Positions 9,518 through 12,672 of a stretch of DNA of 64,000 bases are shown in pieces; positions within the stretch are counted from its first letter, which is position 1, and every line of letters begins with the position of its first letter. The position numbers were made by a program, and so were the translations under genes. Origin of the DNA: Escherichia coli (GTDB lineage Bacteria; Pseudomonadota; Gammaproteobacteria; Enterobacterales; Enterobacteriaceae). The DNA lies in assembly GCF_011045215.1 (NCBI RefSeq), contig NZ_CP049202.1; one strand, 5' to 3'. The notes under the pieces are model-generated. The model was not told the origin of the DNA. It did not search any database and worked only from the letters and a program-made list of their open reading frames with translations.

Positions 9518-10504
9518 TTAATAAGGCCTGATACTGACATGATTTTTGTCGTATTTACGTCCGTGAGCGGCTATTGCCCACACCGTTCGCGCCAGCTTGT
9601 TTGCCATTGCGACGATTGCCACGCTGGCCGGACGACGTTTTTTCAGTTCGGTTATCCACGGCCCAGGTTCTTTGGTCAGTAATGCTGCCGCCCTTGCACC
9701 ATGAATAAACAGGGTTCGCAGATATTTATCACCACGTTTGCTTATTCCCAGCAGGCGGATTTTTCCTCCTGAGCCTGTCTGTCTGGGCACCAGACCAACA
9801 TAAGCCGCGAACTCTCGCCCTGATTTAAACACTGATGCTTTCCCCATGATGGCCAACGCTGCCGTTGCAATAAGTGGACCAACGCCAGGAATATCCAGCA
9901 ACCGTCTACAGGTTTCATTCTGTCTCGCCACACTGGTAAGCTGTTTTTCTATATCATCTATCAGTGAGTCCAGTTCATTCAGCCTGTTGTACTGATTTTC
10001 CAGCACTGTAATGAGATACAGTGGCAGTCTCTCTTTCATCCGCTCCAGTGCTTCAGGGAACTCCCGTTCCATCGCTGCCCGACCTTTGTGGATGGTTTCA
10101 CCAAACTCCAGTAACGTCCCGTGCAGGGCATTAATTTGCGCGGTCCGGAACTTCACCAGTTGTCTGCGGGAACGGTGCAGAACCAGTATTGACTGTTGTT
10201 CTTCTGTTTTGACGGCGATTTCTTTACCTGGCTGCTGTACCGCCATCCAGATAGCTCGCGCATCCATCACGTCATTCTTATTGCCCATGACGAATGCTTT
10301 AACGAAGCGAGCCTGCAACAACCGGACTTTGTGTCCCTGCTTTGTTAATTCACGCGCCCAGTGCCGGGAGCCTCCACAAGCTTCCATGCCAATCAGGCAG
10401 GGTTCGCGGTTACTGAAATACGCCAGAAAATCCTGACGACGAACCTGCTTATCCACCACTTCCCCTGTGTGCTCATTGATGAAGTGAACCTGAATGACAT
10501 GTTT
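9518..10504 (-). pseudogene. IS110-family transposase, 3' part (codons about 13-340), separated from its 5' end by IS21 insertion
   Basis: ...LIGMEACGGSRHWARE... and C-terminal motifs of IS110/IS1111-type transposases; the ORF-track N-terminal 18 codons derive from the IS21 terminus. Confidence 0.75.
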
Positions 10505-10605
10505 TGTCAGCGCCAGTGATATAAGACGGTAATTCACCATTTGGATTGTCCGCTCCACCCAACATGTTGTTTCCTTAAGGTTCTCACACCAGAAAGGACA
10601 TCAAC

Positions 10606-11778
10606 ATGCTGAGCAGAGAGGACTTTTACATGATAAAGCAAATGCGCCAGCAGGGCGCGTACATTGTCGATATTGTGACTCAGATTGGTTGCTCTGAACG
10701 GACGGTCAGACGCTACCTCAAATACCCTGAACCGCCAGCCAGAAAGACCCGCCACAAAATGGTTAAGCTGAAACTGTTTATGGATTACATCGACATGCGC
10801 CTGGCAGAGAATGTCTGGAATAGTGAGGTTATCTTCGCGGAGATTAAGGCAATGGGTTATACGGGCGGACGTTCCATGCTGCGTTACTACATCCAGCCCA
10901 AACGTAAAATGCGTCCGTCAAAAAGAACAGTTCGCTTCGAAACTCAGCCTGGATACCAGCTCCAGCACGACTGGGGCGAAGTTGAGGTGGAGGTTGCCGG
11001 GCAACGGTGCAAAGTTAACTTTGCGGTTAATACGCTGGGGTTCTCCCGCCGCTTCCATGTCTTCGCAGCACCAAAACAGGATGCTGAGCATACCTACGAA
11101 TCACTGGTTCGCGCCTTCCGCTACTTCGGTGGTTGTGTGAAAACGGTGCTGGTTGATAACCAGAAGGCTGCGGTGCTGAAGAATAACAACGGGAAAGTCG
11201 TGTTCAACTCCGGATTCCTGTTGCTGGCCGACCACTATAACTTCCTGCCACGGGCATGCCGTCCACGCAGGGCCAGAACAAAAGGTAAGGTTGAGCGAAT
11301 GGTGAAATACCTCAAGGAGAACTTCTTCGTCCGGTACCGCAGGTTCGACAGCTTCACTCATGTTAATCAACAACTGGAGCAATGGATAGCCGATGTGGCT
11401 GACAAACGGGAACTTCGCCAGTTCAAAGAAACGCCGGAACAGCGCTTCGCGCTGGAGCAGGAACATCTGCAGCCGTTACCGGATACGGACTTCGATACCA
11501 GTTACTTCGATATCCGCCATGTGTCCTGGGACAGCTATATCGAGGTTGGTGGTAATCGTTACAGCGTTCCCGAAGCGCTGTGTGGTCAGCCGGTATCGAC
11601 ACGAATATCGCTGGATGACGAGTTGCGGATCTACAGTAATGAGAAACTGGTGGCCTCACATCGCCTCTGTTCGGCATCGTCTGGCTGGCAGACAGTGCCG
11701 GAGCATCACGCCCCGCTCTGGCAGCAGGTCAGTCAGGTGGAACATCGACCACTGAGTGCCTATGAGGAGCTGTTGTGA
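10606..11778 (+). CDS. istA: IS21-family transposase IstA
   Basis: 390 aa, N-terminal HTH ([23 protein letters not shown]...), DDE core. Confidence 0.9.
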
Positions 11779-12575
11779 TGCATGAGCTGGAAGTCCTGCT
11801 GAGTCGCCTGAAAATGGAGCATCTGAGTTATCACGTTGAAAGCCTGCTGGAACAGGCAGCTAAAAAAGAGCTGAACTACCGGGAGTTCCTGTGCATGGTG
11901 CTACAGCAGGAATGGAACGGCAGGCATCAGCGCGGTATGGAGTCCAGGCTGAAGCAGGCTCGTCTGCCGTGGGTCAAAACGCTGGAGCAGTTCGACTTTA
12001 CCTTCCAGCCGGGCATCGACCGTAAGGTTGTCCGGGAACTGGCTGGTCTGGCGTTCGTGGAGCGCAGCGAAAACGTGATCCTGCTGGGACCTCCTGGTGT
12101 CGGAAAAACTCATCTGGCCATAGCTCTTGGCGTGAAAGCGGTGGATGCGGGACATCGGGTACTGTTTATGCCACTGGACAGACTGATCGCGACACTGATG
12201 AAAGCGAAACAGGAAAACCGGCTGGAGCGTCAGCTGCAGCAACTGAGTTATGCCCGGGTGTTGATCCTGGATGAAATAGGCTATCTGCCGATGAACAGAG
12301 AGGAAGCCAGCCTGTTCTTCCGGCTACTGAACCGTCGATATGAAAAAGCGAGCATCATACTGACGTCAAACAAAGGGTTCGCAGACTGGGGAGAAATGTT
12401 CGGAGATCACGTGCTGGCAACAGCGATACTGGATCGGTTGCTACATCACTCAACCACGCTGAATATCAAAGGAGAGAGTTACCGGTTAAAAGAGAAACGT
12501 AAAGCTGGAGTGCTGACCAAAAACACAACGCCAATCAGTGATGATGAAATGGTGAAAAGCGGACAGCATCAGTAA
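11775..12575 (+). CDS. istB: IS21-family helper ATPase IstB
   Basis: 266 aa, Walker [12 protein letters not shown], Walker [10 protein letters not shown]; 4-bp overlap with istA. Confidence 0.9.
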
Positions 12576-12639
12576 CGAAAGTATCTTAGCGGGCATGAAA
12601 ATGGCAAATAACGGTCAAACATCGTGGCGTTGACAGTTT

Positions 12640-12672
12640 TGCGATATCAACGCCAACCGGTGTATATTTCAT
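12640..12672 (-). pseudogene. IS110-family transposase 5' end (11 codons) displaced by IS21 insertion
   Basis: ATG AAA TAT ACA CCG GTT GGC GTT GAT ATC GCA; joins in frame with 10504 after removing IS21 and one GTTT copy to give MKYTPVGVDIAKHVIQVHF. Confidence 0.65.

Follow-up and report, generated by a model that had tools for sequence, protein, structure and literature searches.

IS21 is the type element of the IS21 family and was first described on plasmid R68.45, and its name is given to copies that share at least 95% nucleotide identity with the ISfinder reference. Promoter boxes (-35 and -10) have been described within the ends of IS21, and a 'cointegrase' isoform of its transposase IstA, produced without the first 8 residues, has been published (PMC10122671). 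In the IS1111 group, which belongs to the IS110 family in the broad sense, elements carry 11-13 bp subterminal inverted repeats with short, unequal extensions of 7 nt on the left and 3 nt on the right (PMC11187229). One of these elements, ISEc11, forms a circular intermediate with a junction promoter, and cargo-carrying ISEc11 derivatives as well as trans-complemented mini-elements were found to move in experiments (PMC11187229). For IS621, mutation of any of the residues D11, E60, D102, D105 and S241 abolishes recombination (PMC11208158). The two kinds of element meet in the 64-kb stretch of DNA analyzed here (the window), where a single IS21 lies near the start of the transposase gene of an ISEc11-like element.

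Identity and ends of the inserted element

A complete IS21 of 2131 bp, which is also the published length of the element, occupies positions 10505..12635 on the plus strand, as delimited by full-length comparison and by the termini of 8 independent copies. It is 99.8% identical across all 2131 bp to many plasmid copies bearing the PGAP label 'IS21-like element IS21 family', which serves here as a proxy for the reference entry, and at least 80% of the element is present in 646 records. The left end starts at 10505 with TGTCAGCGCC (first bases also given as TGTCAGCGCCAGTGAT), and the right end has its last base at 12635, with the tail GGCGTTGACA (also given as CATCGTGGCGTTGACA). These termini, TGTCAGCGCCA and TGTCAACGCCA, are imperfect inverted repeats in which 10 of the 11 first positions agree, and their pattern TGTCA...TGACA fits the family rule 5'-TG ... 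CA-3'. The TTGACA at the very tip of the right end is the described -35 box; inspection by eye for an outward hybrid promoter found no -10 box 16-18 bp from this TTGACA toward the flank.

The same two ends were present in 8/8 independent copies from different plasmids, each copy being flanked by a 4-bp direct repeat of its own (ACAT, TCTT, TATT, ACGG, ACGT, AACA, ATGA and ACTG), and the chance of a random 4-bp match is 1/256. The shared termini together with individual 4-bp repeats in all 8 copies therefore indicate that the ends and the duplication are properties of the element and not products of chance. The sequence-only reading had placed the ends at 10505 and 12635, and the database copies, once checked for different ends, agreed with it in every case.

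Both genes of the element are intact. The DDE transposase of 390 aa is encoded by istA (10606..11778, plus strand), which contains the Pfam domains rve and Mu-transpos_C_2 and scores 277.7 bits against NF033546 (cut-off 160); its codon 9 is the second in-frame Met, consistent with the 'cointegrase' isoform. The istB gene (11778..12575, plus strand), if begun at the ATG chosen by PGAP, encodes an AAA+ helper ATPase of 265 aa that scores 302.9 bits against NF038214 (cut-off 200) and 304.9 bits against PF01695 (IstB_IS21), while the ORF list begins this frame earlier, at GTG 11775. The istA stop codon is overlapped by istB, and the layout of the two genes is alike in other annotated copies. With both NF033546 and NF038214 matched above their cut-offs, the original assignment to the IS21 family is upheld, and on nucleotide identity the element is classed specifically as IS21.

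Target-site duplication and the natural empty site

The tetranucleotide GTTT that had been read on both sides of the element is indeed present as a left copy at 10501..10504 and a right copy at 12636..12639, compared with only one GTTT at the natural empty site. In-silico removal of 10505-12639 restored a minus-strand ORF of 339 aa starting MKYTPVGVDIAKHVIQVHF, so that the in-frame N-terminus expected from the letters alone was recovered, and this N-terminus proved homologous to those of the IS110 family. When duplication lengths of 0-8 were assumed in turn, the frame was kept by 1, 4 and 7 only, and among all of these lengths only 4 gave the natural uninterrupted sequence. A search for the uninterrupted element in related plasmids, which had been suggested as a check, was successful: CP057984.1 carries a natural empty site that differs from the restored sequence (window 9200-10504 plus 12640-13000) by 3 mismatches in 1666 bp, with no indel across the junction. 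The annotation of the gene at that site reads IS110 family transposase, and its protein is 99.7% identical to the restored one.

The restored ORF scores 332.6 bits against NF033542 (cut-off 140), with residues 6-327 aligned on profile positions 2-342 of 343, and Pfam recognizes PF01548, the DEDD RuvC-like domain of the N-terminus, in residues 6-144 and PF02371, the Tnp domain of the C-terminus with its conserved Ser, in residues 210-285. The protein contains the motifs GVDIAK (D9), GMEACG (E52), NKNDVMDAR (D89, D92) and QTGSGGK (S256), and in its C-terminal domain it can be aligned with the structures of IS621 and ISCro4, SG motif opposite SG motif. By these features, the restored ORF is a full-length IS110-family transposase.

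The split transposase gene

In the window, the two parts of this gene lie on the minus strand on either side of IS21. The 5' fragment (12636..12672) comprises codons 1-12 (MKYTPVGVDIAK) plus 1 nt, including GVDIAK with D9, and it runs on into the right end of IS21 to give a 28-aa peptide. The 3' fragment (9518..10504) consists of the duplicated K12 codon, H13-Y339 and the stop codon. In the ORF list it is extended to GTG 10558 within the left end of IS21, and the resulting chimeric 346-aa ORF could in principle be translated, but without D9.

The split after codon 12 probably leaves D9, the first catalytic Asp, cut off from the remaining catalytic residues. Because a phmmer search of PDB sequences with the 146 aa of the N-terminus returned weak RNase H matches only and no alignment to IS621, we infer from motif and profile position only that D9 of the restored protein is the equivalent of IS621 D11. 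The earlier claim that one IS had inserted into another with base precision holds, and the inactivation of the transposase that was claimed along with it is a reading of the split ORF, on which IS21 has almost certainly disabled the host gene.

The host element and its target

The element interrupted by IS21 is an ISEc11-like insertion sequence that belongs to the IS1111 group and lies at 9247..12809 (minus strand), delimited by independent copies, by an insertion in IS2 and by alignment to ISEc11. The range initially drawn, 9518-12672, takes in the interrupted gene and IS21, but the whole host spans about 9247-12809. After removal of IS21 and one GTTT the host is 1428 bp long, and the composite measures 3.56 kb. 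Its boundaries are uncertain by 1-3 nt, since the element begins with AGA and is directly followed by another AGA. A perfect 13-bp subterminal inverted repeat is found at element positions 9-21 and 1414-1426 of 1428, the left-end copy (ATGAACGCATCCC on the minus strand) being at 12789..12801, 8 nt from the drawn boundary, and its right-end partner at 9249..9261, 2 nt from the drawn boundary. A boundary shift of 1 nt, which the AGA ambiguity allows, produces extensions of 7 and 3 nt, and under the published extension rule the host is placed at 9246-12808. Another inverted-repeat pair, at ATGAAGCTGCGG, was rejected as the subterminal repeat, being too far from the ends (33 and 84 nt). A right end at 9320 had rested on 3'-truncated copies and was abandoned for 9247 in view of the ISEc11 alignment, the IS2 insertion and the subterminal repeats.

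The 271-nt non-coding region 3' of the host gene (9247..9517, minus strand) is left untouched by IS21 and is predicted to encode a seekRNA by homology to ISEc11, whose corresponding region encodes this guide RNA (Siddiquee et al. 2024, PMC11187229). A guide-like segment within it, AUCUGCUCU (9398-9406), exactly complements the flank AGAGCAGAT at 9/9 positions, and ISEc11 holds the complement of its own target at the same position. The second variable segment, CUGGGAGAAUA (9372-9382), gives a partial target match only, of about 6/9. Folding of the region yielded z = -1.2, a value that says little by itself, and an Rfam scan of the uninterrupted locus with E values up to 1 recovered no RNA family. 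The right-hand flank AGAGCAGATGA is common to two independent host insertions, one in the IS66-family tnpC of the window and one in IS2 in CP057526.1, and on the evidence of these two sites host insertion appears to be specific for one target.

As the host itself sits in an IS66-family tnpC, the nesting is three levels deep. Joining of the host flanks places the N-terminal 34 codons of tnpC at 12810..12910 and, together with the ORF evidence, the continuation with the zf-IS66 region at 8862..9246, both on the minus strand. The joined flanks form one ORF with an IS66 TnpC N-terminus, in which the join marks the start of the Pfam domain LZ_Tnp_IS66 (residues 33-105). The rejoined tnpC stops after 161 residues, compared with 523-530 aa in the intact IS66 transposases of the window.

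Origin of the nested arrangement

It is nearly certain that one IS21 entered the 5' end of the ISEc11-like IS1111-group transposase gene by simple insertion, on an IncF-type plasmid, and no observation speaks against the insertion as such. The host would first have inserted site-specifically into the IS66-family tnpC, and IS21 would have followed later. As expected for the IS21 family, the target would have been captured by IstB and cut by IstA, and a staggered 4-bp cut would have duplicated GTTT, which reads AAAC on the coding strand and corresponds to codon K12 and one further base, the first of H13. As a result, the host gene lies in two pieces 2.1 kb apart. The piece with codons 1-12, including D9 as the first DEDD Asp by position and motif, is still joined to the left end of the host, and the piece with codons 13-339, in which the catalytic Ser and the three remaining DEDD residues are found, is still joined to the right end and the seekRNA region. 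The host ends, the subterminal repeats and the seekRNA region are intact, and with the transposase gene in two pieces the host would be unable to make its own recombinase.

Two other explanations have to be weighed against simple insertion. IS21 is known from thousands of plasmid and chromosome sequences, and genomes often hold several copies; an assembler might misplace a multi-copy element of this sort between two contigs that both terminate in the host element. The exact composite, with its pair of junctions, is absent from PLSDB plasmids and complete RefSeq E. coli genomes, which also speaks for such an artefact, as there is no second record and the junctions therefore rest on one assembly. 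A misjoin, however, would not yield an exact 4-bp duplication, which is the usual length for IS21, nor would its flanks rejoin to a natural sequence without an indel, and both junctions fall exactly at the IS21 termini; an artefact is accordingly considered very improbable. Homologous recombination between IS21 copies at different places, or the resolution of a cointegrate, would be in keeping with the ability of IS21 to work via tandem copies and to fuse replicons (PMC10122671), and related plasmids do have IS21 elsewhere, as in CP057984.1 at 4871-7001. Such events would leave non-matching flanks, whereas here GTTT stands on both sides of IS21, and the empty site found in nature has the two flanks joined without interruption. 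In addition, the 64-kb window contains a single IS21 copy, and the 3 mismatches to CP057984.1 are scattered and do not form the SNP pattern of two host copies, so that recombination or cointegrate resolution is given just as little credence as the artefact.

The presence of IS21 in IS110-type genes is not confined to this locus: IS21 also lies inside such genes in CP065623.1 and NZ_CP119442.1, which are independent examples. Both records had been considered as carriers of the composite and were rejected: the IS21 insertion in CP065623.1 is a different one, 215 bp away and in a different ISEc11-like copy, and the apparent whole composite in NZ_CP119442.1 was an artefact of joining separate blast pieces.

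Implications

The nesting of mobile elements seen here is an ordinary, routine and already known kind of event, and the finding matters little beyond correct annotation. The correct annotation of positions 9518-10504 and 12636-12672 is a single IS110/IS1111-family transposase gene that has been disrupted, and the 346-aa chimeric ORF that starts within IS21 is not to be counted as a gene. The filled site of the window and the empty site of CP057984.1 together provide a clean, datable marker for the plasmid lineage. The host would represent a natural relative of ISEc11 whose predicted guide RNA has been retargeted to sequences in other insertion sequences, and in a modest way it enlarges the catalogue of seekRNA/bridge-RNA elements.

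Since both ends, the repeats and the seekRNA region are kept, the host could still move if a transposase were supplied in trans, and the transposase of ISEc11, which is 92% identical and belongs to an element with the same subterminal repeats, is a candidate supplier. That the interrupted host could move in this way, as a 3.56-kb seekRNA-guided unit with IS21 as its cargo and a related transposase in trans, is regarded as unlikely. If true, the result of such movement would be a site-specific delivery of IS21 to IS2 and IS66 elements wherever they contain a AGAGCAGAT-type site.

Comparison with known systems

The inserted copy resembles IS21 in its length of 2131 bp, in the overlap of istA (390 aa) and istB (265 aa), in its ends and in its 4-bp duplication, and it differs from the common IS21 sequence by four private non-synonymous substitutions (A24V, P57L and I332T in IstA; A42V in IstB). 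The host shares with ISEc11 identical 13-bp subterminal repeats, the end sequences ATGTAATGAAC and GTTCATAT, a transposase of 339 aa in both elements, and a long non-coding region 3' of the gene, in which a stem is conserved with one compensatory pair change. The two elements differ in nucleotide sequence (85.7% identity in a full-length alignment), in length (1428 bp against 1443 bp for the ISEc11 copy) and in both variable seekRNA segments, and the targets are AAAATACTG for ISEc11 and AGAGCAGAT for the host. As about 95% nucleotide identity or more and the same target would be expected of the same element, the host, with 85.7% nucleotide identity, 92% protein identity and different guide segments and target, is not ISEc11 itself. 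The PGAP name of the uninterrupted copy is neither ISEc11 nor ISEc66, and by these comparisons the host is classed within the IS1111 group as an ISEc11-like element without a name of its own. As for the composite, its exact junction is peculiar to the window among PLSDB and complete RefSeq E. coli records, but it shows no difference in kind from the IS-in-IS mosaics of virulence and resistance plasmids, in which one IS likewise lies in the transposase gene of another with the duplication intact.

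Identity and ends of the inserted element

The 2131-bp segment that starts at position 10505 (TGTCAGCGCCAGTGAT...) and ends at 12635 (...CATCGTGGCGTTGACA), as delimited by slicing the sequence and reading region 9300-13000, is IS21 itself. Its ends form imperfect inverted repeats with a single mismatch in the first 11 positions, GTTT directly abuts both of them (10501-10504 and 12636-12639), and two overlapping plus-strand ORFs of 390 and 266 aa lie within it. By megablast, the full 2131 bp was matched in PLSDB at up to 99.8% identity and at least 80% of the element was present in 646 records, the matching copies bearing the PGAP labels 'IS21-like element IS21 family transposase' and 'helper ATPase IstB'. 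At 277.7 bits against the IS21 transposase model and 302.9 bits against IstB, the two proteins clear the NCBIfam cut-offs, and both contain the expected Pfam domains. Eight independent copies were compared, taken from Klebsiella, Salmonella, E. fergusonii and E. coli plasmids of the IncI, IncN, IncX1 and IncF types; without exception they start with TGTCAGCGCC and finish with GGCGTTGACA, and each is surrounded by its own 4-bp direct repeat. Both features, the termini and the duplication of 4 bp, thus belong to the element itself, and the ends and flanking GTTT proposed in an earlier sequence-only reading hold. The copy studied here differs from the common sequence at element positions 172, 271, 1096 and 1395, in each case by a T/C transition that changes an amino acid (IstA A24V, P57L and I332T; IstB A42V); two of these substitutions sit within the IstA N-terminal HTH domains.

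To the left of IS21 the target reads TGACATGTTT (10491-10509) and the left end of the element begins with TGTCA, so that a short inverted repeat, TGACA-TGTTT-TGTCA, spans the junction; its flank arm is similar to the right tip of IS21. In IS21 tandems, TTGACA of the right tip is a -35 box that makes a promoter together with a -10 box at the left end (PMC10122671). No comparable repeat was seen at the flanks of the eight other IS21 copies, so the one at this junction is probably due to chance.

Restored transposase gene and natural empty site

Deletion of 10505-12639 in silico yields a 339-aa minus-strand ORF starting with MKYTPVGVDIAKHVIQVHF; among assumed duplication lengths of 0 to 8, the reading frame is preserved only with 1, 4 or 7. 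Across the whole NCBIfam profile 'IS110 family RNA-guided transposase' the restored protein scores 332.6 bits (cut-off 140). It contains both IS110-family Pfam domains, and its C-terminal domain aligns to the IS621 and ISCro4 recombinases of solved structure, with the SG motifs in register. The natural empty site is what settles the case for a simple insertion that duplicated 4 bp: a search with the restored DNA identified plasmids carrying the uninterrupted sequence in the same surroundings, and CP057984.1 shows 3 mismatches over 1666 bp and no indels against 9200-10504 joined to 12640-13000. Its junction is ...AATGACATGTTTTGCGATATC..., with the duplicated GTTT present once, and its gene, annotated as an IS110 family transposase, encodes a protein 99.7% identical to the restored ORF. 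Both the deletion and the uninterrupted relative, together with the NCBIfam IS21 models, bear out the sequence-only reading of an IS21-family element inserted precisely into an IS110-family gene.

Among PLSDB plasmids and complete RefSeq E. coli genomes, none carries the exact composite. IS21 has independently entered two other IS110-type genes. In CP065623.1 (4047-6176 of the fetched locus) it interrupts an ISEc11-like gene at about codon 85, with ATGA duplicated; in NZ_CP119442.1 (3001-5130 of the fetched locus) it lies at about codon 266 of an IS110-family gene that is only distantly related (~35% identity), with ACTG duplicated. As the query held both elements, these cases do not indicate a target preference and were probably brought up by the composite query. 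IS21 and its host element both belong to well-described families and nesting of insertion sequences is routine on such plasmids; the insertion is ordinary and already explained.

Consequence for the host transposase

IS21 lies between codons 12 and 13 of the host transposase. Translation of the 5' piece gives MKYTPVGVDIAK and continues into IS21 for a total of 28 aa, and the 3' piece carries E52, D89, D92 and S256, equivalent to E60, D102, D105 and S241 of IS621; from motif and profile position, host D9 would correspond to IS621 D11. Each of these five IS621 residues is essential (PMC11208158). A GTG in the IS21 left end would open a chimeric ORF of 346 aa, which lacks D9. Because the gene is split after codon 12 and the chimeric ORF lacks D9, the host copy is predicted to be non-autonomous; the earlier interpretation was correct, the insertion being directly observed and inactivation its probable outcome. 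The ends and seekRNA region of the host element are intact, so that mobilisation in trans would be conceivable. The window contains just one further IS110-type gene (24636-25697, minus strand, 354 aa, PF01548 and PF02371), which appears intact; it is unrelated, at 36% identity to the restored host transposase, and its help in trans is unlikely.

Outer nesting and surroundings

Joining the host-element flanks restores the N-terminus of an IS66-family TnpC, with Pfam LZ_Tnp_IS66 starting at the join and zf-IS66 next, and IS66 tnpB and tnpA are located just upstream of the interrupted tnpC. This restoration gives the nesting order, IS21 within the ISEc11-like element within an IS66-family element. 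The interrupted tnpC frame stops after 161 residues; next, in the region 8148-8862, comes an ORF of 225 aa that contains an HTH_Tnp_1 domain, and the outermost IS66 element therefore appears truncated by another rearrangement or insertion. Intact IS66-type transposase genes are present at 6213-7781 and 3061-4650. Two long adjacent ORFs, 41391-46661 (1756 aa) and 46661-48814 (717 aa), are taken to be putative conjugative-transfer genes of the TraI/TraD type, from size and adjacency. The window's nearest relatives in PLSDB are plasmids from E. coli, and many of these have an IncF type.

The host element and its predicted guide

Position 12809 is a boundary common to independent copies of the host element. 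The right end at ~9247 is supported by full-length alignment to the 1443-bp ISEc11 copy in CP057984.1, by an independent insertion of the host element into IS2 in CP057526.1 (1501-2939 of the fetched locus), and by the 13-bp subterminal inverted repeats (ATGAACGCATCCC), which match perfectly and occupy element positions 9-21 and 1414-1426. A right end at 9320 was rejected, this boundary having been derived from 3'-truncated copies. Without IS21 the element is 1428 bp, with the transposase gene starting at position 138 and followed by 271 nt of non-coding sequence. This architecture is typical of the IS1111 group, in which the subterminal repeats measure 11-13 bp, the extensions are short and asymmetric, and the seekRNA is encoded by non-coding sequence downstream of the gene (PMC11187229).

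Copies in NZ_AP025742.1 and NZ_CP042296.1 (1501-2854 of each fetched locus) sit in a plasmid type VI secretion cluster. They are without the last 73 nt, and hence without the right-hand subterminal repeat and some of the non-coding region, and they abut 84 bp from the left end of IS2; they thus look like what a deletion left of the IS2-site insertion. An unoccupied ISEc11 target, CCCGTGAACAGTACTGTG, occurs in the IS66 tnpA/tnpB region of the window (~13625-13645, minus strand), and the same position in CP057984.1 is filled by the 1443-bp ISEc11 (8303-9745 of the fetched locus), the two plasmids being reciprocal, each empty where the other is filled.

Although related to ISEc11, the host element is distinct from it (85.7% nucleotide and 92% protein identity). 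Their non-coding regions (9247-9517, minus strand, in the host element; no Rfam model is available for it) are nearly identical outside two short segments, 9398-9406 and 9372-9382. In ISEc11 the first variable segment is CAGUAUUUU, the complement of the ISEc11 target AAAATACTG, whereas in the host element it is AUCUGCUCU, the exact complement of AGAGCAGAT, which directly adjoins the element both in IS66 tnpC and at the independent IS2 site. The second variable segment of the host element matches the target only partially, and the stem around these segments differs between ISEc11 and the host element by a single compensatory change, G-C to A-U. The predicted host seekRNA fits a naturally retargeted guide. 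Since this guide complements the flanks in both IS66 tnpC and IS2, the host element looks like a naturally retargeted relative of ISEc11, predicted to target other insertion sequences.
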